61,827 bases of DNA, taken from assembly GCA_045637065.1 (NCBI GenBank), contig JAZTYQ010000010.1, positions 1 through 61,827 of the forward strand, given 5' to 3'. Origin of the DNA: Acutalibacteraceae bacterium. Its GTDB lineage: Bacteria; Bacillota; Clostridia; Oscillospirales; Acutalibacteraceae. Both the position numbers and the translations under genes were made by a program. The notes beneath the pieces were generated by a model, which saw only the letters and a program-made list of their open reading frames with translations, had not been told where the DNA came from and made no database searches. Below are positions 10,137 to 48,525 of the stretch, piece after piece (position 1 is the first letter of the stretch; the number at the start of each line of letters is the position of its first letter).

Positions 10137-10219
10137 AGGTAACTACCTAAGGCAGCGGCAGTCCAACCGAACAAGTCTTAAATGTCCGATTGCCGTTACC
10201 TTTAAGAAAGGAGAATATT

Positions 10220-12317: not shown

Positions 12318-12347
12318 GTTTTTTTCTTATAACAGGAGGTATTTTAT

Positions 12348-13349: not shown

Positions 13350-13361
13350 GGGTGATACCCT

Positions 13362-14055: not shown

Positions 14056-14056
14056 T

Positions 14057-18371: not shown

Positions 18372-19346
18372 ATGCTTGATTTTTTAGATAAAGTGCAGAT
18401 TATTGACGAAAATAACTACAGTAATATTATGGCTTCACAGGTTGAACCATATCTCGAAAAAAGACGCAGAGAAGATTTTTTCCCGGGCAGTGACGGTGCG
18501 CGCCTTCACTACGAAGCCTATGACAAGCTCCTTTCAAGAGGCAGCATCATCATTCTTCACGGCTTTACGGAATCTGCCGAAAAATTCCGTGAAACGGCAT
18601 ATTATTTCCGCAAGGCAGGCTACAGTGTTTTTATCCCCGACCTTCGCGGTCACGGCAAGTCATATCACTCCTCAGACAAAACGGAGCGTATCGATATCGA
18701 CAGCTTTGACACCTATGCCGACGACCTGGAAATTTTTATTGACAGTGTTGTCAGACCCGCGGCAAAAAACGAAAAAATTTACATCTACTCCCATTCTCTG
18801 GGCAGTACCGTTGCCCTGCTCTATCTTATTAATTACGGCGGCGACATTGAAAAGGCAGTCCTCTCCTCACCTATGATTTGCGGAAATATGGGCATGCCCG
18901 TAGCAATAGCAAGCACAGTGGCAAAGGCACTGTGCACTCTCGGCGGCAAAAAAATCCCCGCCCCCGGCAGATGCGTTTTCAATCCCTCACAAACTGCTGA
19001 GGAAAGCGACGCAACAAGCAATGCAAGATTTTACTATTACCACAGCAAGCGCATAAATGAGCCTCTTTACAAGACAAGCGGACCCTCCTTCAGCTGGGTC
19101 AAGGCTTCAGTTGAGGCAAGGGATAAAATTTTAAACAACGCTCACAAGACAGGGTGCAAAACCGAGCTTCTCATTTTCAAGCCACAAGAGGATAAGCAGC
19201 TTCTCGGCAGTTACACCGACCTCTTTGCCGAAAAAACAAAAACAAAGGTAAAGGATGTCAGAAACTCCCGCCACGAGATATTTATGAGCAGTGATGATGT
19301 GCTGAAGTGGTACTATGAGGAAATCCTCGACTTTATATCAGATTAA
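18372..19346 (+). CDS. Alpha/beta hydrolase (lysophospholipase/monoacylglycerol lipase-like)
   Basis: 324 aa with oxyanion-hole motif HGFTES, nucleophile elbow YSHSLGS and a C-terminal His (NSRHEIF). Confidence 0.82.
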   Translation: MLDFLDKVQIIDENNYSNIMASQVEPYLEKRRREDFFPGSDGARLHYEAYDKLLSRGSIIILHGFTESAEKFRETAYYFRKAGYSVFIPDLRGHGKSYHSSDKTERIDIDSFDTYADDLEIFIDSVVRPAAKNEKIYIYSHSLGSTVALLYLINYGGDIEKAVLSSPMICGNMGMPVAIASTVAKALCTLGGKKIPAPGRCVFNPSQTAEESDATSNARFYYYHSKRINEPLYKTSGPSFSWVKASVEARDKILNNAHKTGCKTELLIFKPQEDKQLLGSYTDLFAEKTKTKVKDVRNSRHEIFMSSDDVLKWYYEEILDFISD

Positions 19347-19352
19347 TAAAAA

Positions 19353-19376
19353 AGGACAGCGTTGCTGTCCTTTTTT
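19353..19376 (+). terminator. Rho-independent terminator
   Basis: aggacagc-gtt-gctgtcct followed by TTTTT. Confidence 0.8.
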
Positions 19377-19377
19377 A

Positions 19378-19475
19378 ATGCACGAAGTGCAATTCATGAC
19401 CGCAGGTCAATTCATGGCGAAGCCAATTCATTCATGCACGAAGTGCATTTCATGGAGCAATCCATTTCATCCTTT
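19378..19475. repeat. Mini-hairpin / A(A/T)TTCAT array (family E)
   Basis: Five units: gcac-gaa-gtgc aattcat; gacc-gca-ggtc aattcat; ggc-gaa-gcc aattcat(tcat); gcac-gaa-gtgc atttcat; gga-gcaa-tcc atttcat. The heptamer spacing is 16-22 nt. Confidence 0.75.
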
Positions 19476-22297: not shown

Positions 22298-22828
22298 TTG
22301 TACAAATCTATACAAAAATGTAGTTAACCATTTGTAAATTCTTAGATTTAATTATCATTACTCTAATCCAAAATAGTAAAGCAATGCACGGACTTCAATT
22401 TCCGTAAGTCGTGCTGTATTACATCAAAATTCCGAAGACAAGTATGTGTTTTATTTATATATCAGTTCATCAATATAATCTCTCTTGCTCGAGCCTGAAA
22501 GTTGGTTGTTTTACCTAATCATTCTATATGATTTGTTCTTTTGGTTCTTTGGTAACACCGTCTACATCTTTCCTCTGCCAAAGAAAGCATCAAATATTTC
22601 TTGCTTTTGAACGTTAATATCAGCAATGAGCTTCCGCAATTTTCTTTTAGAGAGTAGTTTCTTATCGTACTTTTTGAAAGCACCTTATCCAAAGTCTTTT
22701 TTGTCATATTTGACAGAATATTGTTGTAAAATCAAGATTTTTGTGCTATAATGTTAAAGTATTTTTATATATTTGGAGAATGAACAGGGTATATTTATGT
22801 GTGTTTTATATAAAAAGTATTTAAATTG

Positions 22829-23025
22829 ATGATTGATAGAGATATGAACAAAAAAGATCTTCAAGAAGCTTCAGCGGGTAGTTCTTCTTCCATAACTAAA
22901 ATTGCAAAGGAAGCGCATGTAAGTTTGGATGTAATAAAGTTTGTGAAATGCTATCTGTAGATGTTGGTGAAATAATGAAGATAATCTCTACTAGTAACAA
23001 TGCAGAAAAAACACAACAAAGATAA
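22829..23025 (+). pseudogene. XRE-family HTH regulator gene, frameshifted
   Basis: Frame 1 reads MIDRDMNKKDLQEASGSSSSITKIAKEAHVSLDVIKFVKCYL* (stop 22958-22960). After a shift at the A-run near 22934-22939, the next frame continues VCEMLSVDVGEIMKIISTSNNAEKTQQR* (stop 23023-23025). Together these restore the canonical ...VSLDVIxKVCEMLSVDVGEIM... HTH_XRE helix 4-5. Confidence 0.55.
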
Positions 23026-23063
23026 TTATTCTTATTTGTTTTTGAAACATAGGAGGAGTTTAT

Positions 23064-26000
23064 ATGGATAACATCGTAAATGTTCAAGAATCGGATTACT
23101 TTGAGACTAAAATTCCTTTAGATGAGTTAAATGCTAAAAGCACCATATTTGATAGTTCATTAAACTATTCCTACGGTGTATTGACTATGCTTTCAAAGGC
23201 GTTTGCTTGCATTAAGCCAGCATTCTTTAACAACAGCTATGAAGAGGGAATTGAGTATAGTCCATCTGAGATCGTAATTTTTAATCCGTCCAATGTCGCT
23301 CTTAATGGGATAGATGGTAAAATAAACACAACAAAAAAGATGTATCTCGTGCGCTATAGAGATGGTGGGATAGTCAACAATCCTAAAACAGGAGATGCCC
23401 AACCAACAATAGACTATAGTGTTCCTATTGAAATTCTATTTGGCAGCAGTAAAAAACAATGCATATATATGACAATTGAAAACGATATTTTAGTTGTTAA
23501 GACAATAAAAGTATCTGACAGCAATAATAAAACACAAAAAAACTTAGAAGAAAAACATTTTGTTGAAGAACTCGATGAAACAGCCATTTCTATTTTAAGA
23601 GAGAAGATCATTGAAGATATTAGTAATCAAGGGTTTTCATATGCCTCCGAAATACCGCAATACTTATATGAAGCGTGTGGCACAAAAGACATTCAACAAT
23701 TTGCACATAATGTAAGAGAGTTTATAAACAATTATCTTCCCGATTTGTTCACATACGAGTCGAGCTTTGAGTATAACAATAAGACTATTCCTGGGGTAAT
23801 TTTACCGAAAAGAGAAATAACAGAAGAGAAAATTGATATTCTTAAACTATTTAACTCTTTCGGCATCAAACAAGAAAACACTGATTATCGAATTGGAATA
23901 GTAAGCTATTGTGCTGGTAAGGTAGCGTTCATTAATCCAGGATATGATGAAACTGTTTCTGAGGAAACAAACGCTTTGTCTGTTATTTTTAACCCAACAA
24001 GTATACAAACTGTTCCAAATAATTTTATATTTCACACTAAACATAATATATATGTTGTCCTGTTTGCTGTTTCTGGCGTTGTGCTAAATTCAAAAACAGG
24101 ACTGGAACATCCTGCGATCGATCAAACTGTTCCCGTTAGAATAGTAAAAAGCATTGTTCGCAAAGATTGTCTTTCTATTTCCATCTCAACTACTGAAATA
24201 AGTATAAAATACTTTCAGGAAAAAAGTTTTTTAGATAGTGCACTTGCCGCCCTTGATGAAAAAATATCATCAAGAATAAACGCTTCAAAGTTTATGCTTG
24301 CTTCTGACTTTCCACAAATTGCAAAAGAAAGCGGCCTTTTAAATTTTAGAAAATATGCGGATAGTATTGAACTGTTTATTGAGAAATTCCTAAAAAAGTA
24401 TATTTTAGTAAAAAATGTTGCTATTAATCAAAAATCTTTTCCGGGAGTTATTGTAGATAGACATAATCGCGATTTTATAGTCAAAATAACATCTGAGAAG
24501 AATGGAAACGACACAGCAAATGCCATTTCTAAAAGCATAAATTCTTTTGATGAATTTGATGCTTTGTTTTCCGAAAAGAGATATAAAGAAGCACTGTCCA
24601 GTGTCGCTCTGAAGAAAATTTCTCCGCAAGATCTTCCTGTTGAATACATTGAAAAAGTACTGACTGCGGCAGATAGGCTGCTTTTCTCAAACGAAAGAGA
24701 TGAGATAAAATTAAACTCATTTCAGATGGAACTGTTTAATTGCTCCTCGTCACGGGATTTTATAAAAAAATGGAAACATAATGGCACTTTCTCTGACAAT
24801 ATCATTGAAGGATGTTGTGAAACTTCTATTGCAGATTTTGTTTATCCAGAGGACAGCACCATAATAGTAAAATTTCTTAATGCGATTGGCCACAAGAATA
24901 CCGTTAACGACAATTATACCGGCATATTAGAAAGATTTGTTTCTTGTGAGAATGTTTTAGTTCCACATTTATTTTTGATTAGAGCTTTTATTAACAATTC
25001 TTCAACTTCTACTCAAAGAACTATTAGCGAATATTGTCTTTTTATAAAGGCTTTGAAGCACTCTCCTTCCGGAGGTAGATTGACGGATGATTTCAGATTG
25101 TATGGTTTTAAAGAGTTGATGTATGCTGTTAATACATGCTTATCTGAAATAATATTGCTCCCGAGAACTGTTCGTACCCATATTGTGGCTGTGTGCTTTG
25201 AGTATTGCCAAATCGAAATGGCTAAAGATATTATATCGCTTTGGGATGACACACAACAATCAACGGATGGAAGAATAGTTAATCTGTATTTTGCCCCTAA
25301 CGTATGGGATGAGCAATACATAGTTGATTTAATAAAAGAAGGAGCCAATATTCAGCTCCTTCAACGTTGCATTGCCATTATTTGGAGCAAATATGCTAAT
25401 GAACCAGTTTTGCCAAGAAAGTTTCTTGAGCTCCTTTCTTGGATTGTTATTGATGATGATCCCACATCAATAGAGGAAATATTACGATACCCTTCAAGTA
25501 AAAAACTGAACCGAATTGACAAACTAAATATGCTTGTCAATTCGTTCGAGTCTATCTGCACTTTTTCATACTATGACATTAGATTGTTTGCACTTGCTTC
25601 ATATATAGCAGACGAAAAAGAAAACTATCAAAATTTGGAAGCTGTTGCAGAGCCTATAAAAATAAAACTGAGAGACTGGGAATCGTTTTCTGACAAAATT
25701 TTCAAACAAGCTTGTAAAAAAACTAATACACTTACGTATGAAACCGAGAGAGATTATATTTCCCTGTTTTCTATTTTTAGATTAGACACACAACACTATT
25801 TACAGTTACAAGCGGAGTATTCTAATTGGTTTATTACCACCAAACTCAGCACCCCATTAACTGAAGATGAGATCAAAGAAGTGTTGAATTATCTTTACGA
25901 TAGAAAGGCATACGCAGCTCTAAAAGATATTTATTCTCAGCAGAATAGTTTAATTGTTGACGATGATTCAGAAAAGTACGCAATTCAGTACGTGCTTTCG

Positions 26001-29000
26001 CTTGCTTTTCTTCATAAATACTCTGAAGCGATATCTTTTCTTAATAAAACTTCAATAATATCAATTGCTCAAAGGAATGCTTTTCTACCCAAAATTTTAG
26101 GCGAAAATTTCAGGAAAAATGGTTTGTCTCATTTTGCTTTTTCTTGCTTTGATGATTCATTTACTTGTGAAGAGGCAATCAACTTATTACAGTCGAATTT
26201 AAGTCTCTCGCAAGCATACTCGGTTAATTCTCTTGTCGCGATATATATACACAAGGAAGAATATGTAAAGGCGGCTTATTTGTATGTTATTTATTCGTCA
26301 AAAGTCGATAAGGGGTATTTTAAGCTATATTATCAATGCCGCGCTTTTCTTCATGACTATTTAGATTTTAATAGGCTGAAGAGTCCTGTTCATGTAATTG
26401 ATTTTGCATTTAAGGTTTTGAGCGCAGAAAAATTAATCTCCTTTTTGGATTGGGCAAACGGGATCATTGTTCCTGATATCAAAGGAAATAGAGAACCCCA
26501 TATTTTCCAATACTTTTATGAAAGACTAGTTGAAGACCCGAGAAATAAGGACAATTGGATTGTTTTTCTAAATCATCTATTAAAGAATGGTTTGGAAAAA
26601 AATTCATGGAATATCCTTGTATGTGAAACGGTACTTAGGCGTGTTCTAAATAACGATAATCGCGCATTTTCCGAAAGCGCGATTACTTTGCTATGCAATA
26701 TAGGTGACAAAAAAGCAATTCCCCCAGCCTTCCTAATCTATGTTTTCCAATTTATTGAAGATACTAAAAATAATAATACCTGTAAATGCATTATTGATAT
26801 GATGTCAAATGATGCCGATTACAATTTTGCGGTTAAAGATAATAGCTGGTTAAAAATTTATAGTAAGGAAATTGGTCATTTCAAAACTTTCTGTTTGAGC
26901 TCTTATGAAGAAACAAACAATAATTTGTTTAATGATCTACTTGTTTCTTTGAGATTCGACTTGAATATCAAAGAGCTTGAGGGAACAATAAAAGCTTCTT
27001 CGAGCAAAAGATTGCTTATTTCAAAAATATGTAAAAACTATTTGGAAGGCAATGATCTTGAAGAAACGATAAATCTTCTCAATTCACCGGAATGGGGTAA
27101 TACTTCATATTCTGAGATGAAAGCAATTGCGTTATTAAAACTAGTTTTTGACAACGAAAACGGTCTATTTGTAGACGCTGAAGATTTATTTGATAATGAC
27201 GAAACCATATATCGATTTAAATATGATTGTGTTAATATCTTAAAATATTATCCAGAGAAAAAAGGTCTATTTTTATTTAATGAGTCTTGCAATAACGAAA
27301 GTTACAAAATGCTTGTATATACGTACATTTTCAATGTGATTTACGATCAAGATCTTTACAAAGTATTAGATAAAAAATATACAGACTTCACCAGCAAAAA
27401 AGAGTTGGATATATATCTGCATTTTCTTATTTCGTCATATAAAATGCAATTAGTTATTAACACCACATTTCCGTCTTTCTATAAAAAGTGGAGATATTTG
27501 AAGCTCTTTTTGGCTCATTTTCTTATCAATCCTAATTGCATTTATGATTCTGAAATTTCAGAACTGATGATGGGAAACGGACATTACGATGAATTTTTCA
27601 CACTCTCATACATTCCTTTTACAGAATATGTGAGAGAGTTTTGGGGCTTGAGTGATTTGAGTCTTGATTTCAAAACACGATTTTTGTTTGCTCTGTTGAT
27701 TGGTGATTCAAATGATGTTTTTGAAAACCATATAGAAACTTTTGCTAACTTATCACAAAACGAAAAAGATATTTTCAAGCAACTAATAATAAGTTTGGAT
27801 TATCGTGATTTTAACGAAAAGTTCTATGAATTCTATTGGAAAGATATAAAAGCAAAAAAATTTACCGAATGCCTTACTGTAGCTGCGTCTATTTCCGATT
27901 ACTCTTTTGACGCTATACAAGCATTATCAAAAAAATATGATGATGTTTCAATTGAGTTGTTTGCTAAACTTGCCTTAAACAAAAAACATTCAAGAGTACT
28001 AACCGAAGCAACTCTAATAGACGCAGAAACGCTACACAATTATCATAGCATTATTGTCCCATTGTTATGTTCAAGACAATTCATATTTTACATTAATGAT
28101 AGGTTCCGTAGTCTCGTTATCCGAAACAAACAGAATGCATCATTTTGTCAAAGATATGAATACATAGCAAAATATGTAGTAAATACAAAAAAGACCAATG
28201 ATGTTTCCGCTTATCTTTGGGCTTTGTATTACTGTATTCAAAAAGAACGAGAAAAAGCGAAATTGATTGTTTCTGACAGCAACATTCTTGCCTCCATACC
28301 TGAAAAATGGAAGAAAGAAGCCCAAAGAATCGCCGATTACACAAATGGTGAGACCGATAGATTTTCTCCAGACAAATCCATTGTTGATGGCAGTGAGGAA
28401 AATAAAAAGTCTAACACGAATACGCGTTTCGCGTCAACAATTCTTGGCAGAAAATTTACGAATGAAAAAGCTCTAACTACAATTGAAGAAGCTTCGGAAG
28501 CGTATGAACATTATTTGTCTGAAACGGATAATTGGGAAAAATCAAAATATGGATTGTTGTTATTATGTTTCCTTTCCAATGAAAAATCAAAAAGACATCA
28601 AGACCTTCCGTCAATAAATGACTTTTCCCTTGAACTCGGTCTTTTGATAATTAAACCCGACACAGGCTTTTCTTTAAATGAAAGATTTTTAGTGGTTGCT
28701 GCCTTGTTTAACAATAGGGCAACCTATTCTCAAAGCAAGTATTCATCTGCCTATAATGAGCTGAAATCAGAGTTCATGGGTCTTATCAACATTAACAATA
28801 GTATTACTGTTTGGGTAAAATATGCTTCTGTCATTGAGGATTTTCTTCGTGAATCCAAGTTGTTATTGGATTTCCACGAATTAAAAGAAAGGATTTTGGA
28901 AAAATGCTCCACATTGACATCTCTTGACATAGCATATGAGAAAAAGATTTCTGAATATGAAATACTGTTATCTTCATTTTCTGGACTTACATCTAACTAT

Positions 29001-31760
29001 TCAACAAGTGTTTTGAAGGCAATTCAGGAAGAATGTAAAACACTTGGAAATGGTGTTCGTTTAGAAATTAAAATTGAAGACTGTAATGTTTCTGATGGAA
29101 AAATCTATTTTTCAATTCGAAATAATAGCAATCGAACAGTTTCCTTAGAAAATGATGGCATTTTGATTATCTTACAGCAGGAAAATCAGCCGGATATCGA
29201 TATTGATATTGAAAGCATAAGAGAATTGCAACGTTTTTCTTTAACTGGAGGCTGTGTACAACTGGTGACATCTTCTGATGATGTTCAAACTACTGTAAAA
29301 ATAAGTGCCTATCGAATTAACAAAGATGGTCTTAAAGAACTAATCAGTTGTGATTGCGAAAGAATTTCTTTTGTGAAATCAGAACAATTATTTGTTCCAG
29401 CGGATTCAGAATACAATGTTAGATCAGCTGTAGACGAAGAAAGTATGCTTTTCGGACGGGAGCATCAAAAAGATTTATTAACAAAAAGCATCCCCAAAGG
29501 AGTAACATTAATTTATGGTCCGTCCAGAATAGGAAAAACATCTTTGATGAACTGGATTCGGAACAAACTAGCCTGCGATCAAGGAAATGTTGCTACAATA
29601 ATTTGCGGTGGCGAGAATGGTTTGGGGAAAAACTCCGATTATTCTAGAAATCTAATTGACGGACATAGTCCACTTCCTTTTGATGATGATTATGGAATGT
29701 CTCAATATCTCTTAGTTGATACAATAATCCACGGATTAACGAGAGATGGCAGAGATAGGCTCGGCAAACCGGCTCAGAAAAAGCTTTCACGCGACCTTAT
29801 TGAAAATATTTTACAAGTATTAAGAGATAGCGGAACAAATATTAAGTCAAAATACTATGAAATAAATGATTTCCTTGAAGAGGAAGGAATAGAGTTATGG
29901 CTAATGCTGGATGAGTTTCAGCAAATTGTTGAAAAATGGCAACCTAACATCTGGTCCGACTTTGTAGAGGTGTGCAATCTTCTTTCAAGTACAGAGAGAA
30001 ACAAACCGCAATGTATTAAACTTATTATTTGTGGCTCAGATGATTTGCTGAAACATATGACGCTAAAAAGAGATTCCGTGTGGAAAAGCGCCTTCCGTTC
30101 AACAATTTCAGTCGGAGCATTATTGCCCGAACCGTTTAAAGCTATGATTGAACAAGATAGAGCGGTTGCTGATACCAACTTACGCTATTCTTCCATGGCT
30201 ATTGAAGCATTGTATAATTATACGGGCGGGGTTGCGCTGTATGGAAAGGAAATATGCAATGCTATTCTTGAAGATATAAAAACCAATCCTCAAAAGTATG
30301 ATTCAAGAACTTGTATATATGCGTTTGACGTAGCAGAAGCAACACAAAGACTCTTGAACAGACAAACGGCTGAATTGAGTACAAAAGCAAAAGAAGGAAT
30401 CAGTGAAATATATGCTGCTGTCACAAAGAATCTGGACGAAAAAACAGAGATGCAGATGTTGTGGTTTATGGCTAAGTGGCTTTATGAGAATAAAAAGAAT
30501 AATGGTTTCCCGGAAAGCGTATTTACAAATGCTATGCTATCCACAAACTTTGCGGAACATCTGAACGACTCTTTGCGTATTGCTGAAGCAAGGGGAATAC
30601 TGCGGCAGAATCATTCTCAATATAGCAATGAGAATTCATTCGTTTTCACGACACTATTTTACTTCTATGCATTTTTTGGAAGCGCAAAAGATAATCTTGA
30701 TGAAAGTCTGATTTTTTCTCAGCTTGATGATTTTGATGTAAGCAATACCTTCGTTTCTGATTTAGAGACAGTCAAACAAATCTTTGGCAATATGGATGAA
30801 GAGTCTCAAGAGTGGGCAATTGGAGGAATGGCTTTATCCGCAAAATCACCAAACATCAGAAAGAAACTGAAAGAAATAGCCGGAAAGAGTTACGAAGGTG
30901 ATGACCGCAGTATAACAGTAAATTCTCAAAATATTACCAATACAATAAATGGTATTTTTGCTGCTGGTGCAGATTTTTCTCAGATAGTTAGCAATTTACA
31001 AAGCTTACCGCGCTTAAATGCATATTTAGGTGAAAGCGGAATTCCTCTGCTGGAAGATCTCGAAAGTGAGAATCCAGAGCTGGTAGTTGAAGCGGAAACA
31101 AACCTAGAATCAACTACTAGTCAGATGGTGTCGGACTATCTTTCTGCACTTGTATCTAATAATGATACACCGGACGAGTTCTGTGTTTGGGATATGCTCA
31201 GAATAACAAAAGGAACATATATGGATATATCGAAAAAGATTCTTCCTTCATTCATGGCTGATTTGTTTTTTGCAGCAAAATTGGATTATATTTTTGAGCT
31301 TGCAAAAAGTGATGAATCTGAAATTGACTGCAGTCCAGTTTGTATTATGTACTGTAAAACTCTTGAAAAAGTTTTAAGGTTCTATCATACTGAAAAATAT
31401 CAAGAATACTTTCCTGAAAACAGCTGTGAGAAAGACTATTTGTTCGGTGATTTGACAACAATGAGTGAAAGGGATCGTAAAGAAATACAAAGTAGAATCC
31501 AGTTAGGCAGCTTCCTATTCCCCATTAAACCGGGCAAGTACAAAGAAGATACTGATTGGATTAATGTACCAAAGTCAAAAAGAAGTGATTGGAGAAAACA
31601 CGGTCAATTGCTAAAAAATGTTGTCCCAATACGCAACAAATCTGCACATGGAAATTCGAACGGTAATATTGTAGGAAAAGCTCAGTTAGAGAAGCTTAAG
31701 AAACTCCTTTTCAGTGATGATGGGATATTAAATATTATAGTTCTTTCAGAAGACGATTGA
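23064..31760 (+). CDS. Giant (2,898 aa) multidomain protein: duplicated N-terminal module + long helical repeat region + STAND/AAA-type P-loop ATPase + C-terminal HEPN-like domain
   Basis: A single uninterrupted ORF with RBS AGGAGGAG 7 nt before the ATG.
- Internal duplication: aa 37-249 vs 276-466 (e.g. SEIVIFNPSNV / LSVIFNPTSI; NPKTGDAQPTIDYSVPIEI / NSKTGLEHPAIDQTVPVRI; TIPGVILPK / SFPGVIVDR).
- Walker A GPSRIGKT at aa 2152-2159 (nt 29517-29540), preceded by FGREHQ.
- Walker B WLMLDEF at aa 2279-2285 (nt 29898-29918).
- R-x4-H motif IRNKSAHG with R2857 and H2862 (nt 31632-31649). Confidence 0.85.
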   Translation: MDNIVNVQESDYFETKIPLDELNAKSTIFDSSLNYSYGVLTMLSKAFACIKPAFFNNSYEEGIEYSPSEIVIFNPSNVALNGIDGKINTTKKMYLVRYRDGGIVNNPKTGDAQPTIDYSVPIEILFGSSKKQCIYMTIENDILVVKTIKVSDSNNKTQKNLEEKHFVEELDETAISILREKIIEDISNQGFSYASEIPQYLYEACGTKDIQQFAHNVREFINNYLPDLFTYESSFEYNNKTIPGVILPKREITEEKIDILKLFNSFGIKQENTDYRIGIVSYCAGKVAFINPGYDETVSEETNALSVIFNPTSIQTVPNNFIFHTKHNIYVVLFAVSGVVLNSKTGLEHPAIDQTVPVRIVKSIVRKDCLSISISTTEISIKYFQEKSFLDSALAALDEKISSRINASKFMLASDFPQIAKESGLLNFRKYADSIELFIEKFLKKYILVKNVAINQKSFPGVIVDRHNRDFIVKITSEKNGNDTANAISKSINSFDEFDALFSEKRYKEALSSVALKKISPQDLPVEYIEKVLTAADRLLFSNERDEIKLNSFQMELFNCSSSRDFIKKWKHNGTFSDNIIEGCCETSIADFVYPEDSTIIVKFLNAIGHKNTVNDNYTGILERFVSCENVLVPHLFLIRAFINNSSTSTQRTISEYCLFIKALKHSPSGGRLTDDFRLYGFKELMYAVNTCLSEIILLPRTVRTHIVAVCFEYCQIEMAKDIISLWDDTQQSTDGRIVNLYFAPNVWDEQYIVDLIKEGANIQLLQRCIAIIWSKYANEPVLPRKFLELLSWIVIDDDPTSIEEILRYPSSKKLNRIDKLNMLVNSFESICTFSYYDIRLFALASYIADEKENYQNLEAVAEPIKIKLRDWESFSDKIFKQACKKTNTLTYETERDYISLFSIFRLDTQHYLQLQAEYSNWFITTKLSTPLTEDEIKEVLNYLYDRKAYAALKDIYSQQNSLIVDDDSEKYAIQYVLSLAFLHKYSEAISFLNKTSIISIAQRNAFLPKILGENFRKNGLSHFAFSCFDDSFTCEEAINLLQSNLSLSQAYSVNSLVAIYIHKEEYVKAAYLYVIYSSKVDKGYFKLYYQCRAFLHDYLDFNRLKSPVHVIDFAFKVLSAEKLISFLDWANGIIVPDIKGNREPHIFQYFYERLVEDPRNKDNWIVFLNHLLKNGLEKNSWNILVCETVLRRVLNNDNRAFSESAITLLCNIGDKKAIPPAFLIYVFQFIEDTKNNNTCKCIIDMMSNDADYNFAVKDNSWLKIYSKEIGHFKTFCLSSYEETNNNLFNDLLVSLRFDLNIKELEGTIKASSSKRLLISKICKNYLEGNDLEETINLLNSPEWGNTSYSEMKAIALLKLVFDNENGLFVDAEDLFDNDETIYRFKYDCVNILKYYPEKKGLFLFNESCNNESYKMLVYTYIFNVIYDQDLYKVLDKKYTDFTSKKELDIYLHFLISSYKMQLVINTTFPSFYKKWRYLKLFLAHFLINPNCIYDSEISELMMGNGHYDEFFTLSYIPFTEYVREFWGLSDLSLDFKTRFLFALLIGDSNDVFENHIETFANLSQNEKDIFKQLIISLDYRDFNEKFYEFYWKDIKAKKFTECLTVAASISDYSFDAIQALSKKYDDVSIELFAKLALNKKHSRVLTEATLIDAETLHNYHSIIVPLLCSRQFIFYINDRFRSLVIRNKQNASFCQRYEYIAKYVVNTKKTNDVSAYLWALYYCIQKEREKAKLIVSDSNILASIPEKWKKEAQRIADYTNGETDRFSPDKSIVDGSEENKKSNTNTRFASTILGRKFTNEKALTTIEEASEAYEHYLSETDNWEKSKYGLLLLCFLSNEKSKRHQDLPSINDFSLELGLLIIKPDTGFSLNERFLVVAALFNNRATYSQSKYSSAYNELKSEFMGLININNSITVWVKYASVIEDFLRESKLLLDFHELKERILEKCSTLTSLDIAYEKKISEYEILLSSFSGLTSNYSTSVLKAIQEECKTLGNGVRLEIKIEDCNVSDGKIYFSIRNNSNRTVSLENDGILIILQQENQPDIDIDIESIRELQRFSLTGGCVQLVTSSDDVQTTVKISAYRINKDGLKELISCDCERISFVKSEQLFVPADSEYNVRSAVDEESMLFGREHQKDLLTKSIPKGVTLIYGPSRIGKTSLMNWIRNKLACDQGNVATIICGGENGLGKNSDYSRNLIDGHSPLPFDDDYGMSQYLLVDTIIHGLTRDGRDRLGKPAQKKLSRDLIENILQVLRDSGTNIKSKYYEINDFLEEEGIELWLMLDEFQQIVEKWQPNIWSDFVEVCNLLSSTERNKPQCIKLIICGSDDLLKHMTLKRDSVWKSAFRSTISVGALLPEPFKAMIEQDRAVADTNLRYSSMAIEALYNYTGGVALYGKEICNAILEDIKTNPQKYDSRTCIYAFDVAEATQRLLNRQTAELSTKAKEGISEIYAAVTKNLDEKTEMQMLWFMAKWLYENKKNNGFPESVFTNAMLSTNFAEHLNDSLRIAEARGILRQNHSQYSNENSFVFTTLFYFYAFFGSAKDNLDESLIFSQLDDFDVSNTFVSDLETVKQIFGNMDEESQEWAIGGMALSAKSPNIRKKLKEIAGKSYEGDDRSITVNSQNITNTINGIFAAGADFSQIVSNLQSLPRLNAYLGESGIPLLEDLESENPELVVEAETNLESTTSQMVSDYLSALVSNNDTPDEFCVWDMLRITKGTYMDISKKILPSFMADLFFAAKLDYIFELAKSDESEIDCSPVCIMYCKTLEKVLRFYHTEKYQEYFPENSCEKDYLFGDLTTMSERDRKEIQSRIQLGSFLFPIKPGKYKEDTDWINVPKSKRSDWRKHGQLLKNVVPIRNKSAHGNSNGNIVGKAQLEKLKKLLFSDDGILNIIVLSEDD

Positions 31761-31945
31761 TTGCTTTTTCAACCATTTGTCGCAGAACATGGCATATAGA
31801 TAAGATAGCATTGTTCTGCGACAGCATTAATGCGTATTTGCATTTTTTATACCCACTTGGAAGAAAAATGGAAATGACGGAAATTATTCAATATAAGAAC
31901 TGTTTTACGGACTTTACATTCAGCTATGCATTTATAGTACTTTTG

Positions 31946-31973
31946 TTGACTTTTTCTGTTTTTCTGCTATAAT
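31946..31973 (+). promoter_or_regulatory. Sigma-A-type promoter upstream of the XRE regulator
   Basis: TTGACT (31946-31951), 16 nt spacer, TGcTATAAT (extended -10; hexamer 31968-31973). Confidence 0.55.
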
Positions 31974-32059
31974 GAAATTGGTTTGATAGGGTCGTTTTTC
32001 TTGCCAAAGTTTTGTGATTTATAGGCTTTATGCCACACAAAAACTTAGGAGGAATAACA

Positions 32060-32443
32060 ATGAAAATAGTTTCCATCAACTACGCTAATGCTTGGCTTAT
32101 GGGGATCGACCCTATTGCAACTGGGAGACAGCTTAAAAAGTTGCGCCGTGACCATCACTTAACGCAAGAGTTCCTGTCGGAGCTGTTTGAACAAGGTGGT
32201 GATTCGGCATCCAGGGTCATTATCAGCATGTGGGAGAACGGCAAGAAACTGCCAACCCTTTCACACATAGTGTTCCTGGCAGAGCTTTACGGCTGCCGTC
32301 TCGACGAGCTGGTCGTGAGTTATCGGCGCTCTCGCGAGGCTGATGATCGGGACCAGCCCGTTCATTTAATAAATATATTTTTATCAAGACGAATGTATGC
32401 AATTGCGTATGTTCGTCTTTTTTTGTATACCTATGATTTATAG
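32060..32443 (+). CDS. XRE-family helix-turn-helix transcriptional regulator
   Basis: ATG 32060 follows TTAGGAGGAATAAC. The sequence GRQLKKLRRDHHLTQEFLSELF...SRVIISMWENGKKLPTLSHIVFLAELYGCRLDELV is a canonical HTH_3/XRE pattern. Confidence 0.8.
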   Translation: MKIVSINYANAWLMGIDPIATGRQLKKLRRDHHLTQEFLSELFEQGGDSASRVIISMWENGKKLPTLSHIVFLAELYGCRLDELVVSYRRSREADDRDQPVHLINIFLSRRMYAIAYVRLFLYTYDL

Positions 32444-32716
32444 GAACATTCTTTTGAATCATTATAATAGAATCATAGCTTAAGGAATGTCGTAATGAAA
32501 ATATCTGAAAAGTTTTTTCTTATAGGAGTTATTCATATTACTCCCATTGACGAAAGGGTGTCTGTTATATAAAAATCACCCTGATGAAGCGATGAAAATT
32601 ACAAATAAATGCCTTGCGTGTAATAAGTTCAAAGGTAATTGATAACCACAAGTTAATATACGGTTTTGCAACTATATGCGATAATAAATACACAATGAAT
32701 CAAGGAGGAATCCCCG

Positions 32717-33106
32717 ATGAAAAAGATCAAAGCACAAGTTAATCCTAAAGACAGAGTTGTGTGTGTTACAGTTACAGGTGCACATAAATTCTACTATCAG
32801 GCCTACAAATCTAAAGAGCGTATGTATCTCTTTACAACAGAAGATTTTTCCGGATCTGTATTTGCCTACTTCCGTGATAATGGCAGGTGCATAAGTGGAT
32901 GTGGTTTCAGCCTTACTATCAAGGAGTTATATGAAGATCGCAAGAGCTACCGAAACCCCAAAATCGCAAAAATTTTTGAACGCCTTCCCGGTATGGTAGA
33001 TTATGTGCTCCGTGAACATACCGAACAGAAGGAAAAGCTCAAGTACAACAATATTGTAAAAAAGCCTAATAAGGTTTTCTATGAAGATCGCGAACTCGCA
33101 GCTTAA
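32717..33106 (+). CDS. Hypothetical protein (orf1 of 10-gene operon)
   Basis: 129 aa, RBS CAAGGAGGAAT, no recognised motif. Confidence 0.55.
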   Translation: MKKIKAQVNPKDRVVCVTVTGAHKFYYQAYKSKERMYLFTTEDFSGSVFAYFRDNGRCISGCGFSLTIKELYEDRKSYRNPKIAKIFERLPGMVDYVLREHTEQKEKLKYNNIVKKPNKVFYEDRELAA

Positions 33107-33123
33107 GAAAGGAGATAAAGATT

Positions 33124-33723
33124 ATGAAAAAGGATTCTTACATTAAAGGTGCTGGAATTAAGTCCATCAGCGCAGCACCGGATTGGGTTATCAAAATCAT
33201 CGGTTGGATTGACAGTTATAAATCTCCCGATGTAGCATCTGCACATCTTAATAAGTATTTGGCCAACCTTGCAAGCAATGAAAAAGATGAAGCACTTTTG
33301 GCAGTAGCTGCTCTTAGGGGATATAGAACGCAAGGTGAAAAATATCTCTACACCATTACGCACACAGATGTAGGTATTACACCTGATATACCCTCTTCCG
33401 ATAATTCACCTGCAGCCCAAAGAGCTTACTCATCAGCTCTTGCAAAGCATAAAAGCAAAATGGCAACAATTACAAGCGCAAAAGAAGCTTTACCTGAAAT
33501 TGATGCTGCTATTACTTCTGGAAACCTCGTTTTTGAGGAACGTCTGGAAAAGACCCGAAACAAAGGAAAACATCAGATTGATGTTTATATCAAAGGAGTA
33601 CGTTCCGGAAAGCACCATAACTTTGCGCCGGAAATCACCTTCGATGATACGGCTCGCTCAAAATACTATGCGGCAAACAAAGGGACTGATGACTTAATTC
33701 ATCAGTATGCTAAAGGAGGGTAA
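33124..33723 (+). CDS. Hypothetical protein (orf2)
   Basis: 199 aa, RBS AAAGGAGAT, 17 nt after orf1. Confidence 0.55.
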   Translation: MKKDSYIKGAGIKSISAAPDWVIKIIGWIDSYKSPDVASAHLNKYLANLASNEKDEALLAVAALRGYRTQGEKYLYTITHTDVGITPDIPSSDNSPAAQRAYSSALAKHKSKMATITSAKEALPEIDAAITSGNLVFEERLEKTRNKGKHQIDVYIKGVRSGKHHNFAPEITFDDTARSKYYAANKGTDDLIHQYAKGG

Positions 33724-33726
33724 ATT

Positions 33727-34182
33727 ATGAAGAACAAAAAAACTAAAACCGAAATTTTAAAACGTCGATTCAAAATCAAGAAAAAGAATGAGCCAGAGGT
33801 AATTAATCCCTTTGGTGAATTCAAATCAAAGTATGCTCATCTCTCAGCATGGAGATACCTTGACAGTGATCAATTTGCCATGTACGAGGCATGTTTCCCG
33901 GATAATGCACGCGAATTCTACACAAAATCAGGGGCGGACAAATATAATCATGATGCTCTTGATCTTGATATTGATAAGCATGTTCTTGATGAACACAAAC
34001 ATATCGATGAACAGTGTGAATCACACTTAGTAGTACTCGAGGATCTTCATATTGGTGTAGAAATTGAAATTACATCGGTAGATGCCAAGATAGAGCAGGT
34101 TAATAAGATGCTTAAAGGCTGCTACTCTGAACGCGATGTACTTAATACCCGTTATGACTCATTTAATAGAAAGGTTGGTTGA
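33727..34182 (+). CDS. Hypothetical coiled-coil protein (orf3)
   Basis: 151 aa, RBS AAAGGAGGGT, 3 nt after orf2. Confidence 0.55.
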   Translation: MKNKKTKTEILKRRFKIKKKNEPEVINPFGEFKSKYAHLSAWRYLDSDQFAMYEACFPDNAREFYTKSGADKYNHDALDLDIDKHVLDEHKHIDEQCESHLVVLEDLHIGVEIEITSVDAKIEQVNKMLKGCYSERDVLNTRYDSFNRKVG

Positions 34183-34187
34183 TTTTT

Positions 34188-35087
34188 ATGAAAACTAATA
34201 ACCCTATTCCTGTAGGAAGCTTTGATTCCGTCTACAATGGCATCAGAAATATTCATAAATCCACAAACACATGGTGGCTTATGAAAGCAACTCTTCTTGT
34301 GTTTCTTATCGGCTTCAGTGCAGTAGACGGTTTCACGCTCTATCCTGTTTTTGAGTATATTTTTGCTTCTTCTCCTCTTGTATTGTATGCCACTACTTTT
34401 GGCACGGCTATTGCCATCAACTTTTTACCATGTATTGCCGCTAGGTTCTATCTTCGCTCAAAGTATGGGCTTCAGGAAAAGAATTACATGTTGTTTTTTG
34501 TGACACTGGGGTTGTTCATGGTGATTTTCGTAGCCCTTGGAGCTTTGAGATTCGCGACTGCCGATGAGGTAATCGGTAATATATCAGGATTTATGTCTTC
34601 TTCCTCAGGCTCCGCAACAGATGACTCAGGTGTTCCCGGTTCAATTCCTATGATAATCGTTCAGATTGCCACTAATCTGCTTACATCTGCGATAGCTTTC
34701 TTCCTGTCGTATTTTTCAGAAAATCCTCTTAAAATGCGCCTTGAAGCAATTGAACTGCAGATTGCCGATTTAGAGGAACGTGCTATAGCTCTTGCATGTG
34801 CAAAGAAAGAGTTGTCTATGTACGACTACGACAAGATGATGGAACATGAGATGCATAAATGCAGGCTTGCACATGAAGCGCTGGATGCCCGCAGAGATGC
34901 TCTCAAGATTGAATCTGACAAGCAGCTTGAAATGATCCTTGGCTCGGCTGATGCAGATACTGTCATAACTGACGATCAGAAAGCAGAGGAAGCTGCCCGA
35001 ACAAGACAGCTATCTGCAGATGATAATATGTCCGATAAAAATGAAACACAAGATAATAATAGCTTTACTACTAAGGAGGTAGCTTGA
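34188..35087 (+). CDS. Integral membrane protein, 4 TM segments + C-terminal coiled-coil tail (orf4)
   Basis: Four hydrophobic segments (e.g. WWLMKATLLVFLIGFSAVDGF, PMIIVQIATNLLTSAIAFFLSYF) are followed by the heptad-like stretch LEAIELQIADLEERAIALACAKKEL... and an acidic tail. TTG 34179 is an alternative start. Confidence 0.6.
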   Translation: MKTNNPIPVGSFDSVYNGIRNIHKSTNTWWLMKATLLVFLIGFSAVDGFTLYPVFEYIFASSPLVLYATTFGTAIAINFLPCIAARFYLRSKYGLQEKNYMLFFVTLGLFMVIFVALGALRFATADEVIGNISGFMSSSSGSATDDSGVPGSIPMIIVQIATNLLTSAIAFFLSYFSENPLKMRLEAIELQIADLEERAIALACAKKELSMYDYDKMMEHEMHKCRLAHEALDARRDALKIESDKQLEMILGSADADTVITDDQKAEEAARTRQLSADDNMSDKNETQDNNSFTTKEVA

Positions 35088-35088
35088 T

Positions 35089-36294
35089 ATGTTTAAAAAA
35101 ATTATTTCTCTTGTAATTGTTCTCGGTTTGGTTGTTACACTTTTTTCCGCCTGTGGTGGTAAAGATAAAGGTAATTCCAATGATAAAGAAATAAATGAGA
35201 ATTCTTCAAAATCCCTTGCCCTTTGTGTCCAGTATACTGCAAATACCGCAACTCCTATGTTAGGTGATTCAGAGGTTTCCAACACCGTTTACGATACAAT
35301 ACGTTCCTCAGGCGGTGTTACCATTATTGAGGTAGACGGTGATTCTTACACCGTTGATAAGGTAATTGCGGAGATTCCCGATAATGTTTCAGATGCAAAA
35401 AAAACTGCGATTTCGAAGCAGATAACAAAGCAGGTTTTAAGTATAGCCGGTTCCGCTGCTCCGAAGACTGGTGAGATCGATGTGCTTAAGGGCTTGATAC
35501 TCGCTGCACGTAACCTGGATACCTCCTGTGATGAAAAAACAGTTCTTTATCTTGGATCTGCGCTCCAGACAGTCGGATATCTTCCTTTTGCTTCGCAAAA
35601 TCTTTTTGATACAGATACGAGTGTTATTATTTCTCAATTGAAGGAGAAAAATGCAATCCCTGAATTTCCCGAAGGTACTACTGTTGTTTTTGCAGGATTA
35701 GGTGATACTGTTGCACCTCAGAAAGATCTTACATATACACAAATTGCTAAGTTGAAGGAGATAATGCAGTCAATATGTGAAGAAGGCGGTGCTGTAGTGG
35801 ATTTTATTACAGCAACCCCCGTATCAGATAACAGCGTAACTGATTTTCCTGCTGTATCCACTGTAACTGTCTATGATGATTATGTTGAAGGAGATCCTAT
35901 TACGGGTCCGCTGAAAATTGATTCAACACAAATTTCCTTTGGGGCTGATTCATATATGCTGAGTGACAAAGCGGCTGCAATAAAGTTTTTAAGTCCTTAT
36001 GTTGATTCCATTAATGCTTCAGACGACACAATCTTTATCTGTGGAACTACAGCCACAGTTGGTAGTAATGACAGTTGTGTAGAGTTTAGCTTAAAGAGAG
36101 CCCAGACAATTGTTGATTTGTTGTGTGAAATGGGGGTCGATTCTGCAAGACTTAAAGCCAAAGGCCTTGGATACGAAAACAGTTTTCATATACTCGACAC
36201 AAATGAAAATGGCACCCTTATTGAAGAAGCTGCTCAGAAAAATCGACTGGTTATAATTATTCCGTCTTCCTGCAGTGATGCCTCAAAAATTTAA
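35089..36294 (+). CDS. Lipoprotein with C-terminal OmpA/MotB-like peptidoglycan-binding domain (orf5)
   Basis: Lipobox LVVTLFSAC-GG. The C-terminus FSLKRAQTIVDLLCEMGVDSARLKAKGLGYEN...AAQKNRLVIII matches the OmpA_C pattern (LSxxRAxxVxxxLxxxGV...G.G...NRRVxI). Confidence 0.75.
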   Translation: MFKKIISLVIVLGLVVTLFSACGGKDKGNSNDKEINENSSKSLALCVQYTANTATPMLGDSEVSNTVYDTIRSSGGVTIIEVDGDSYTVDKVIAEIPDNVSDAKKTAISKQITKQVLSIAGSAAPKTGEIDVLKGLILAARNLDTSCDEKTVLYLGSALQTVGYLPFASQNLFDTDTSVIISQLKEKNAIPEFPEGTTVVFAGLGDTVAPQKDLTYTQIAKLKEIMQSICEEGGAVVDFITATPVSDNSVTDFPAVSTVTVYDDYVEGDPITGPLKIDSTQISFGADSYMLSDKAAAIKFLSPYVDSINASDDTIFICGTTATVGSNDSCVEFSLKRAQTIVDLLCEMGVDSARLKAKGLGYENSFHILDTNENGTLIEEAAQKNRLVIIIPSSCSDASKI

Positions 36295-36364
36295 GAAAAC
36301 CTCTGGTTGAAATCAAAAAAATTGAGACATTACTTTAACAGATATTTTTGAAAGGAATATCTAT

Positions 36365-36613
36365 ATGTACTACTTTATATTGCTGATATTGTATCTTGTC
36401 GTACTTATCCCTTCGACAATTTACTTGACTAGATACAGGGATGTACCGTCTTCAAGACGATTGAGTGCCGGGCTGGGAGTTGCAGGTGTCCTATTCGCTC
36501 CATCAGTTGCGACATTCCTTTGTGAGCTTCTTGTTTCTGTTTTCAGCATAGGTCTGTTTCTTCTTATATTTTTGGGCGGAATAGGCCTTATGCTCAAATC
36601 ACTGTTCCGATAG
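36365..36613 (+). CDS. Small membrane protein, about 3 TM segments (orf6)
   Basis: 82 aa, almost entirely hydrophobic, RBS GAAAGGAAT. Confidence 0.5.
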   Translation: MYYFILLILYLVVLIPSTIYLTRYRDVPSSRRLSAGLGVAGVLFAPSVATFLCELLVSVFSIGLFLLIFLGGIGLMLKSLFR

Positions 36614-36622
36614 GAGAATGTT

Positions 36623-36928
36623 ATGGATTGTTTAAGTGTATTACAATATGGTGGCATCACCGTGCTGATAGTACTTCTTATTATATTTGAAATAAGAAAC
36701 TTTCAGGGCAACAGTTACGCCAACAATTACAGTTATGTTTATTATACCTGTAAAAACACAGCAGTAAGAATAAGACATGTGATGGCTTCGCAGTACAGAA
36801 TCTATATAAAGGACGGGGATTTCTGTCCCGCAGAAACATCCTCTGACCGTTACGGTACATATTTCAGGCTCAAAGCAAGAACTGCTTCAGAGGCAGAAAA
36901 CAGGATAGATGAGCTGTTCAGAGGCTGA
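36623..36928 (+). CDS. Small N-terminally anchored protein (orf7)
   Basis: 101 aa with one N-terminal TM segment (GGITVLIVLLIIF), RBS TAGGAGAAT. Confidence 0.45.
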   Translation: MDCLSVLQYGGITVLIVLLIIFEIRNFQGNSYANNYSYVYYTCKNTAVRIRHVMASQYRIYIKDGDFCPAETSSDRYGTYFRLKARTASEAENRIDELFRG

Positions 36929-48410: not shown

Positions 48411-48456
48411 AATTGTGACTTGTCATATTCTGCAATAAGTTTGCATATTTTTCTTC

Positions 48457-48488: not shown

Positions 48489-48525
48489 CTTGTTCTCCTA
48501 AAAAATTAAAAAAGGAGTGTTTTTT

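Follow-up and report, generated by a model that had tools for sequence, protein, structure and literature searches.

Bacterial NLR-like immunity reportedly includes the Avs and bNACHT proteins. In an Avs protein, an N-terminal effector is followed by a central NTPase and a C-terminal TPR-like sensor; activation reportedly involves the binding of a conserved phage protein and oligomerization. NTPases of the STAND class, as they have reportedly been defined, consist of a P-loop nucleotide-binding domain (NBD), to which first a helical domain and then a winged helix are joined; they have a Walker B motif of the form hhhhD[DE] and a conserved N-terminal motif of the hhGRE type. HEPN RNases need two HEPN domains to form an active site. 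In PrrC and RloC, the HEPN RNase at the C terminus is under the control of an ATPase at the N terminus of the same chain, and fusions of the type STAND-TPR-S1-HEPN, with cyanobacterial and proteobacterial examples, have also been listed (PMC3710099). CoCoNuT systems, which are multi-gene derivatives of McrBC with a McrB GTPase and a McrC partner, are predicted to carry out RNA-directed defense (PMC10542128). Here we analyze a stretch of 61,827 nucleotides (nt) from an Acutalibacteraceae bacterium (GenBank assembly GCA_045637065.1, contig JAZTYQ010000010.1; the whole stretch is called the window below), in which one gene encodes a giant protein of 2,898 amino acids (aa) that ends in an ATPase and a HEPN-type domain.

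Read from its N to its C terminus, the giant protein carries two OB/cold-shock-like barrels alternating with winged-helix-like units, about 1,500 residues that match no recognizable domain, a beta-sandwich, an ATPase that resembles both ORC/Cdc6 and STAND proteins, and a HEPN-type domain. It is probably an undescribed bacterial immune protein. With modest confidence, we read it as an NLR-like, ATP-switched abortive-infection RNase (a predicted activity) that is carried as cargo by an integrative and conjugative element (ICE) of gut Clostridia. ATPase-HEPN fusions as such are already known. What is new is a large unannotated family that is found only on conjugative elements of gut Clostridia and half of whose sequence has no recognizable fold; its function we infer from domains and context.

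Comparison with described systems

In working logic, the giant protein appears to resemble the Avs/NLR type and PrrC/RloC while belonging to neither. It shares with Avs and other NLR-like proteins a single large chain, a switch ATPase (i.e., NBD, lid, and winged helix), a large candidate sensor that is the most variable part of the protein, a nuclease-type effector, and an occurrence on mobile DNA in defense neighborhoods. Unlike in Avs, the order is reversed, such that the candidate sensor is N-terminal, the NTPase follows, and the effector is C-terminal. The original prediction had read the domains in this order, and predicted structures and profile searches bear it out. The protein also differs from Avs in matching no Avs or NLR model of PADLOC, in having an ATPase fold nearest to ORC/Cdc6, in opening its candidate sensor with modules of the OB/cold-shock-like and winged-helix kinds instead of TPR repeats, and in being about 1.5 to 2 times the typical Avs size.

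PrrC and RloC are alike in their one-chain ATPase-HEPN arrangement and abortive-infection logic, and they often adjoin restriction-modification genes, as the giant gene does at two of its loci (L001 and L021). Their ATPases are of the ABC type (Rad50-like), whereas that of the giant protein is an AAA+/STAND-like ATPase_2; no sequence relation is detectable, and the giant protein has 2,100 additional N-terminal residues. The only ABC-type matches that it gave in the NCBIfam and PDB sequence searches were short P-loop matches to MlaF. The STAND-TPR-S1-HEPN fusions are the nearest published description, compared by description only: they likewise join an RNA-binding type of OB-fold module (S1 there, cold-shock-like here), a helical region, a STAND-type ATPase, and HEPN, whereas the giant protein has no TPR or S1 match in Pfam and its hosts are gut Clostridia. 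CoCoNuT systems are similar in their predicted role and in their parts (cold-shock domains, an Ig-like beta-sandwich, helical repeats, an AAA+-type NTPase, and HEPN nucleases) and differ in being encoded by several genes; neither a McrB-family GTPase nor a McrC partner was found in the giant protein or among its neighbors. The order of an ATPase followed by HEPN is by itself no novelty, as it already occurs in PrrC/RloC, in the STAND-TPR-S1-HEPN fusions (PMC3710099), and in relatives of 800 to 1,150 aa that lack the N-terminal 2,100 aa of the giant protein. Finally, archaeal and eukaryotic ORC/Cdc6 initiators give the best structural match to the unit of ATPase, lid, and winged helix, but the identity is 10 to 15%, there is no replication context, and the unit forms part of a 2,898-aa protein with a HEPN-type domain at its end. 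The likeness reflects shared AAA+/STAND ancestry and not a role in replication.

The C-terminal HEPN-type domain

Features of the giant gene and of its surroundings are listed in Table 1. HEPN domains are marked by an Rx4-6H motif that closes helix 3, by a polar residue (N, D, or H) next to the R of this motif, by E-x3-[KR] in helix 2, and by a variable insert between helices 2 and 3; metal-independent RNase activity is a further mark of the superfamily, and a part of its domains serves as binding modules only (PMC3710099). Our model and alignment of the giant protein fit these four features of sequence and topology, and the order of the predicted helices together with the insert also fits the four-helix up-and-down bundle of HEPN domains. 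Of the segment R2857-N-K-S-A-H2862, 20 full-length homologues share the R, N, A, and H without exception. A helix (aa 2837 to 2862) in the AlphaFold2 (AF2) model ends exactly at H2862 and is followed by a loop and another helix (aa 2872 to 2884), with a local predicted local distance difference test score (pLDDT) of 69 to 89. The helix at aa 2757 to 2782 carries the invariant E2768 with R or K at +4 (R2772 here; e.g., TLEKVLR and EALLK), and the variable insert (aa 2783 to 2836) separates helices 2 and 3.

Direct domain-profile matches were all below threshold (RiboL-PSP, 0.0014; DUF4145, 0.002; MAE_28990, 0.022; Csm6, 0.14; HepS in the PDB, 0.41), and every one of them is a HEPN family or the solved HepS protein. 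PDB sequence searches with two HEPN-domain profiles (A2 and A6) gave nothing significant, the Foldseek lists for the C-terminal model (PDB and BFVD) were dominated by the ATPase, and a word-indexed protein search with the HEPN profile returned only fragments of the family. An exhaustive HMMER search with the HEPN-domain profile recovered 197 proteins at an E value of ≤1e-3. The family shows no variation at the D, K, E, G, and RNxxxH positions, which 35 more distant proteins (E values of 1.8e-11 to 4.9e-5) retain as well. Relatives at E values of ≤5e-5 include proteins that match DUF4145 (8.9e-6), HEPN_Swt1 (6e-6), or Ymh at any place in the protein, most of them fused to STAND-type ATPases or to SF1/SF2 helicases; small relatives of the domain gave only weak HEPN matches. 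Since the direct matches are below threshold while the motifs, the topology, and the transitive links fit, we regard a HEPN identity, as read from alignment and model, as well supported but not proven. The R-x4-H signature first noticed at the C terminus thus stands in its motif, position, and helix topology and lacks a significant direct HEPN match.

Table 1. Positions in the window of the giant gene, its predicted domains, and adjoining features
Feature	Position (nt)	Strand	Basis or remark
Promoter-like site: TTGTAA, 17-nt spacer, TG-extended TATAAT	22724..22752	+	Consensus scan, 10/12 matches; 5' of decayed regulator and giant gene
HTH_26/XRE-type regulator pseudogene (76-aa ancestor)	22797..23025	+	Two frameshifts in A-runs; sequence read directly
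Giant gene	23064..31760	+	Intact open reading frame, ATG start, 2,898 aa
N-terminal module 1: OB/cold-shock-like beta-barrel (aa 33-152) and winged-helix-like unit (aa 169-249)	23160..23810	+	AF2 model; limits from repeat HMM
N-terminal module 2: second barrel (aa 272-387) and winged-helix-like unit (aa 388-466)	23877..24461	+	Duplicate of module 1
Central region (aa 467-1995, ~1,500 aa), candidate scaffold or sensor	24462..29048	+	No recognizable domain
Seven-strand beta-sandwich (aa 2000-2103)	29061..29372	+	AF2 model, pLDDT 85-91
P-loop ATPase core (aa 2125-2350), then helical lid and winged helix (aa 2351-2545)	29436..30698	+	Pfam, Foldseek, motifs
Walker A, GPSRIGKT	29517-29540	+	Sequence
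Walker B, WLMLDEF	29898-29918	+	Sequence
Linker (aa 2546-2727), partly of low confidence	30699..31244	+	AF2 pLDDT 39-68 over much of length
HEPN-type domain (aa 2728-2890)	31245..31733	+	AF2 secondary structure, motifs, sub-threshold profiles
IRNKSAHG motif	31629-31652 (R2857 to H2862, 31632-31649)	+	Sequence
Short open reading frame, apparent remnant of 325-aa gene 3' of giant gene in L003	31757..31972	+	tblastn
XRE/HTH_3 regulator, first gene of conserved element backbone	32030..32443	+	Pfam HTH_3, E = 3.9e-9
Conjugation-type backbone genes	32717..39753	+	Pfam; synteny
OmpA-domain protein	35089-36294	+	Pfam
TraG/TrwB-type coupling protein	37589-38890	+	Pfam

The ATPase and the beta-sandwich

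The AF2 model of aa 1985 to 2898 was built on 11 family sequences (mean pLDDT, 77). Its ATPase core is built from a strand and helix with Walker A, an inserted helical part, a strand with Walker B, and a strand of the sensor-1 type (IKLIICGS), and it is followed by a lid with a GGVALYGK motif and a winged helix at aa ~2494 to 2544. An FGRE motif (aa 2130 to 2133) precedes the P-loop, with G2131 and R2132 invariant; across the 20 full-length homologues FGRE, Walker A, Walker B, and GG-x-[AP]-LYGK of the lid are invariant or nearly so. In Pfam, the best match is to ATPase_2 (PF01637; E = 1.1e-7; 32.3 bits against a cut-off of 33.2) over profile positions 19 to 218 of 225, and AAA_22, nSTAND1 (E = 0.035), and AAA_16 (0.25) match weakly. 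A precomputed PF01637 entry exists for most homologues and is graded weak or faint in the locus annotations. Foldseek placed archaeal ORC/Cdc6 structures at the top of its PDB list (1w5t, E = 1e-7, and then 2qby and 2v1u), followed by HslU, RuvB, and RFC, and the first NLR, plant NRC2 (8xuo), appeared at rank 44 (E = 2.9e-4).

The elements of the STAND architecture (FGRE, Walker A, WLMLDEF, core, lid helices, and winged helix) are all present in the sequence and the model. We call the ATPase ORC/Cdc6- and STAND-like because the fold, Pfam, and motif results are taken together; a strict STAND identity is plausible. The P-loop NTPase had been described as of the PF01637/STAND type: its motifs and coordinates hold, while the best fold is that of ORC/Cdc6, such that STAND is plausible rather than established. 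The short beta-rich segment reported in front of it (aa ~2000 to 2110) is a confidently modeled sandwich.

N-terminal modules and the central region

The duplication recognized at the N terminus is real and lies where it had been placed; BLASTP aligned aa 1 to 269 with aa 270 to 499 at 27% identity over 230 columns (E = 3e-21). In the AF2 model of aa 1 to 520 (pLDDT, 77), the unit occurs twice as a beta-barrel followed by three to four helices and a beta-hairpin, with the same order of strands and helices in both modules. In the PDB, Foldseek matched the unit best to a cold-shock domain (6y96; E = 0.016; prob, 1.0) and next to other OB folds, and a winged helix matched the helical part. These fold matches suggest that the N-terminal input region probably binds nucleic acid. 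The number of modules varies across the family (0 to 2 barrels and 0 to 5 winged-helix units). A Pfam scan of the N-terminal 520 aa of ten family members gave no match, and an assignment of the winged-helix units to OST-HTH/LOTUS domains was unsupported by that scan.

The central region (aa 467 to 1995) matched nothing in Pfam, NCBIfam, PADLOC, or the PDB sequences. It is conserved and contains strongly conserved motifs such as KKWRYLKL in the family alignment. By sliding identity, the N-terminal and central parts are the least conserved among homologues, and the ATPase is the most conserved. This middle part had been called helix-rich and repeat-like: the lack of a recognizable domain is as described, profile-profile comparison of aa 500 to 1990 found no internal repeats (all probabilities, <3%), and a low content of proline and glycine (3.7 to 4.8%) suggests a helix-rich composition without going further.

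A family confined to gut Clostridia

A word-indexed protein search found 19 full-length relatives at 28 to 50% identity, and with the exhaustive search, clustered at 50%, the family grew to about 90 representatives (1,800 to 3,100 aa), in all of which the HEPN-type domain is at the extreme C terminus. The motif R[NDH]xxxH is present in 90 of the 90 giant relatives, and Walker A in 87 of the 90. Sixteen loci were found among 185,579 species (one genome per species), and the hosts are all gut Clostridia (Lachnospiraceae, Oscillospiraceae, Christensenellaceae, Faecalimonas, Ruminococcus, and others). No relative was detected by tblastn in the PLSDB plasmids (72,556 records) or the GenBank phages (50,697 records); one was present in IMG/VR, on a contig resembling the same conjugative-type element.

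The giant protein matched no family of PADLOC-DB v2.0.0 at E ≤ 1, which agrees with an undescribed family, as the original prediction had proposed to check, and NCBIfam gave nothing useful. PDB sequence searches with the profiles of the N terminus (A4) and of the whole family (A1) gave nothing significant. We found no names for family members in public sources and, in literature searches for this combination of domains, no account of the family.

Five short ATPase-HEPN proteins (P0127, P0128, P0135, P0142, and P0143; 800 to 1,150 aa) align with aa 2100 to 2898, including Walker A and the HEPN ends, and their ATPases match nSTAND1, AAA_16, and ATPase_2. Because of this alignment, the giant protein can be seen as an N-terminally extended form of an ATPase-HEPN core.

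One of the short proteins, P0128 (1,032 aa), is encoded by the third gene of an apparent operon at four loci (L027 to L030; 1173-6887, 6902-7984, and 8001-11099), where the preceding proteins of 1,904 and 360 aa have no Pfam match and a transglutaminase-core gene adjoins. The N terminus of the 1,904-aa protein also resembles repeated small beta-barrel units; the idea that its gene is a split-off N terminus of the giant was rejected, as neither it nor the 360-aa protein is detectably similar to that part of the giant.

Reading frame and upstream region

The uninterrupted frame of 2,898 codons reported for the gene is confirmed by the open reading frame call. A strong Shine-Dalgarno sequence, AGGAGG, lies 7 nt 5' of the ATG, and the N termini of the homologues, with their common MDxIVN, indicate that the start is correct. 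Given the base composition of the gene, stop codons should occur about once in 13 codons, and the probability of 2,898 stop-free codons is about 3e-102; an 8.7-kb open frame in DNA of 34% GC cannot persist without selection. The GC content is 33.9% for the gene, 36.8% for the low-GC island (20901-48300), and 45.4% for both flanks. The AT-rich island noted at this place is therefore real, but its contrast had been overstated (28 to 30% against 50%); the gene's status as conjugative-element cargo and its mosaic nature had been overlooked.

The decayed XRE regulator that had been noticed upstream is the remnant of a 76-aa HTH_26 gene. In tblastn, the regulator of L003 matches the pseudogene at 76% and 83% identity in two different frames. 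The 76-aa gene is intact in L003 and L001, a 69- to 81-aa HTH_26 gene lies immediately 5' of the giant gene in L003, L022, L023, L024, and L025, and in L001 and L021 an intact HTH_26 gene lies 5' of a restriction-modification pair and the giant gene. The promoter-like site (Table 1) is weak evidence because the count of such sites in the region is not above that of shuffled controls. Immediately 3' of the giant gene, the short open reading frame resembles the start of a gene of L003 (9603-10580) at 53% identity over 43 aa (tblastn). That gene, of 325 aa, matched nothing in Pfam or PADLOC.

Cargo of a conjugative element and gene neighborhood

The HTH_3 regulator that opens the backbone of the element belongs to a family of at least 205 homologous clusters, far commoner than the giant gene, and all seven of the family members examined (five distinct regulators) lie 5' of transfer genes. 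The backbone in the window is syntenic with those of L003, L031, and L039 at 28 to 79% amino acid identity. All ten of the family loci with enough flanking sequence are conjugative-element-like. At its end, the low-GC block adjoins genes for tRNA-Tyr and tRNA-Thr. No attachment-site repeats were found flanking the island, and no integrase or relaxase was recognized within 20901-48300.

Sibling elements were identified through look-ups of homologues of the backbone regulator. In seven of them (L034 to L040), the slot 5' of the regulator (locus position 10001) holds other cargo or none. The cargo of L034 to L036 and of L039 and L040 consists of a TIR protein with a 932-aa Card1_endonuc-like protein, or of a 1,008-aa unknown protein with a 933-aa Card1-like protein and Sel1 proteins; the slot of L037 has no cargo, and at another regulator locus it is filled by the giant gene and a Sel1 protein. 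Since sibling slots hold TIR/Card1-like genes, other large genes, or nothing, the giant gene occupies a variable cargo slot that in several of the siblings examined carries immune-type genes. A block of foreign composition, transfer genes, and a slot that varies between siblings were thus all found, as for cargo of an ICE. One scan of metagenome contigs for sibling elements and one of viral contigs with the profile of the backbone regulator found nothing.

Defense-type neighborhoods, for which the original prediction had suggested a survey, do occur in relatives: Lamassu genes and a type II restriction-modification pair adjoin the giant gene there, and TIR/Card1-like cargo takes its slot in siblings. 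In L001 and L021, the order of genes is Lamassu, HTH_26, C5-methylase, Eco29kI-type endonuclease, giant, WYL protein, and HD protein. The Lamassu genes of L001 gave strong PADLOC matches (LmuA, 1e-103; LmuC, 7.5e-43; LmuB, 4e-248), and the counterparts in L021 weaker ones (LmuA, 7.9e-12; LmuB, 4.2e-14). A protein of about 900 aa with a C-terminal WYL domain (PADLOC WYL, 3e-15) is encoded 3' of the giant gene in L001, L007, L014, L018, L019, L021, L022, L023, and L026, and a Cas3-HD-like protein of about 230 aa was also detected in L001, L018, L021, L022, L023, and L026; the two occupy 18368-21756 in L001. Neither lies 3' of the giant gene in the window, L003, or L024. The giant, WYL, and HD proteins may form a three-gene system in much of the family. 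The description of the gene as standing alone therefore holds for the window and its nearest relatives in context, but not family-wide.

At the tRNA-proximal end of the low-GC block, a 571-aa protein without a Pfam match (44538-46253, minus strand) and a 186-aa zinc-ribbon protein (46319-46879, minus strand) are encoded.

Mosaic origin of the window gene

Residues ~200 to 2550 are closest to those of four homologues (P0002 to P0005; sliding identity, 42 to 75%), and the last 300 aa are 67 to 84% identical to those of five others (P0012 to P0016), which elsewhere are only 20 to 35% identical. At the nucleotide level (blastn), positions 22685-23764 and 30745-33131 resemble L003 and L024 at 70 to 82%, and positions 23927-30716 resemble L021 at 65 to 68%. 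Because similarity switches from L003/L024-like to L021-like and back, the window gene is a recombinant, in which a central cassette of about 7 kb from one lineage lies between ends and a flanking element of another. The 3' breakpoint (nt 30716-30748; aa ~2551 to 2562) coincides with the exact end of the unit of ATPase and winged helix, within the linker. Such mosaics, with breakpoints where domains meet, are usual among immune genes.

Proposed function and alternative explanations

On the reading that we favor, the arrays of OB/cold-shock-like and winged-helix modules, together with the central region, would form a sensor that binds a nucleic acid or a protein of an invading phage or a rival mobile element. 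Binding of the trigger would free the ORC/STAND-like ATPase from an auto-inhibited, ADP-bound state, and ATP-dependent self-association would pair the single C-terminal HEPN domains of neighboring chains. Because HEPN RNases need two domains and each chain offers one, such pairing would switch on RNA cleavage; the resulting growth arrest of the infected cell may protect both the population and the element. Neighborhood and domains together point to a role in defense; the antiphage or abortive-infection activity put forward at the outset agrees with both, and it is from both that it is predicted here.

Several results weigh against this reading. Known-defense models of PADLOC give no match to the giant protein, and the best matches to the ATPase fold are replication initiators rather than immune STAND proteins. 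No profile or structural match that is both direct and significant backs a HEPN identity, the fold matches of the N terminus are weak (best E = 0.016), and no fold can be assigned to about half of the protein. The broken regulator may mean that expression of the window copy is abnormal or that decay of the locus is beginning. Family members are known from their sequences alone, and no cultured model organism has been identified among their hosts. Carriage by conjugative elements is also compatible with roles that serve the element in ways other than phage defense.

One such role, which we consider unlikely, would be action against rival plasmids or ICEs (i.e., exclusion or incompatibility) or as an addiction-type toxin that stabilizes the element, with the same biochemistry of an ATPase-gated HEPN RNase. 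The gene has been seen only on conjugative-element-like loci, with no relatives in the 50,697 phage or 72,556 plasmid records; HEPN proteins (DUF4145/DUF3644) are reported to clear the conjugative plasmid RP4 (2026 preprint, 10.64898/2026.07.06.735840), and the OB/cold-shock-like modules, judging from their fold match, could bind single-stranded DNA (ssDNA) that enters in conjugation. Yet the Lamassu and restriction-modification neighbors and the TIR/Card1-like alternative cargo are classical antiphage systems, and no conserved partner resembling a cognate antitoxin adjoins the gene in the clade of the window. This explanation overlaps heavily with the NLR-like abortive-infection RNase favored above, from which only the target distinguishes it. 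We give a still lower probability to a transfer-associated protein of the "polyvalent" type, made or delivered early in conjugation to aid establishment by degrading host RNA or countering immunity. Giant multi-domain proteins are reportedly characteristic of both conjugative elements and phages. The giant gene is found at an edge of its element, beside the element's regulators, and one family member has a very weak match to LPD15 (E = 0.14); this match is not significant, and the giant protein lacks the several unrelated enzymatic domains (e.g., methylase, helicase, and peptidase) that define polyvalent proteins. Many siblings with the same backbone have no giant gene, which indicates that it is not needed for transfer, and in relatives it stands in an operon-like arrangement with restriction-modification and Lamassu genes.

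It is comparably improbable that the C-terminal domain is a non-catalytic HEPN-like bundle or no HEPN at all, the protein being an ATP-dependent scaffold or regulator that binds nucleic acid, or that the window copy is decaying. The sub-threshold profile matches, the decay of the adjoining regulator and of the downstream 325-aa gene at the window locus, and the existence of binding-only HEPN domains (PMC3710099) would fit. The R, N, and H and the upstream D, K, and E are nonetheless invariant over about 90 divergent clusters and the distant relatives, a pattern typical of catalytic HEPN, and selection is needed to keep the frame open. A wider proposal, which is possible but which we hold only tentatively, treats the family as a distinct class of giant single-chain sensors of the conjugative elements of gut Clostridia. 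In such a class, arrays of barrels and winged helices would read invading nucleic acid (conjugative ssDNA or phage RNA), the 1,500-aa domain would signal to the ATPase that assembles HEPN dimers, and specificities might change through swaps of sensor and effector cassettes; the mosaic of the window gene is what suggests cassette swapping as a source of new specificities.

If the favored reading is true, NLR-like immunity in bacteria is not tied to the order of effector, NTPase, and sensor, and nucleic-acid-binding modules, beyond repeats that recognize proteins, could serve as its input. Conjugative elements of the abundant Clostridia of human and animal guts would then bear, in a defined cargo slot, a sizeable immune gene (about 8.7 kb) that has so far gone unannotated; this would be relevant to phage therapy, microbiome engineering, and gene flow in the gut, and the clean recombination at a domain border would be a natural example of how such proteins diversify. 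The ~1,500 conserved residues without a recognizable fold are a target for structural discovery.

Other features of the window

On the same element, two copies of a short-peptide open reading frame ending in ...EATGSL(L/W)GSVISCAGTWGGVYLLYLAACC (40387-40590 and 40858-40986, plus strand) lie inside 140-nt direct repeats (40452-40591 and 40848-40987) that are 89% identical. A Peptidase_M50 membrane protein and a ThiF-family enzyme are encoded just 3' of them (41074-43534), and an M50-like gene is also found in sibling elements. Judging from these genes, this looks like a small cluster for a modified peptide (i.e., a bacteriocin or a signal). A glycine riboswitch (48324-48411, plus strand; 59.5 bits, above the gathering score) precedes a sodium:alanine symporter gene (48517-49902), which is an ordinary arrangement. 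The left flank, of higher GC content, contains phage-type genes (8327-14461, plus strand), including those for a large terminase (8868-10136) and a capsid protein (12348-13349); they are a separate prophage or remnant, unrelated to the giant gene. Three close copies of a 24-nt TTCATGCACGAAGTGCAATTCATG-like sequence (19375-19454, plus strand) lie 3' of a hydrolase gene (18372-19346) and are possibly an operator or terminator-like array.

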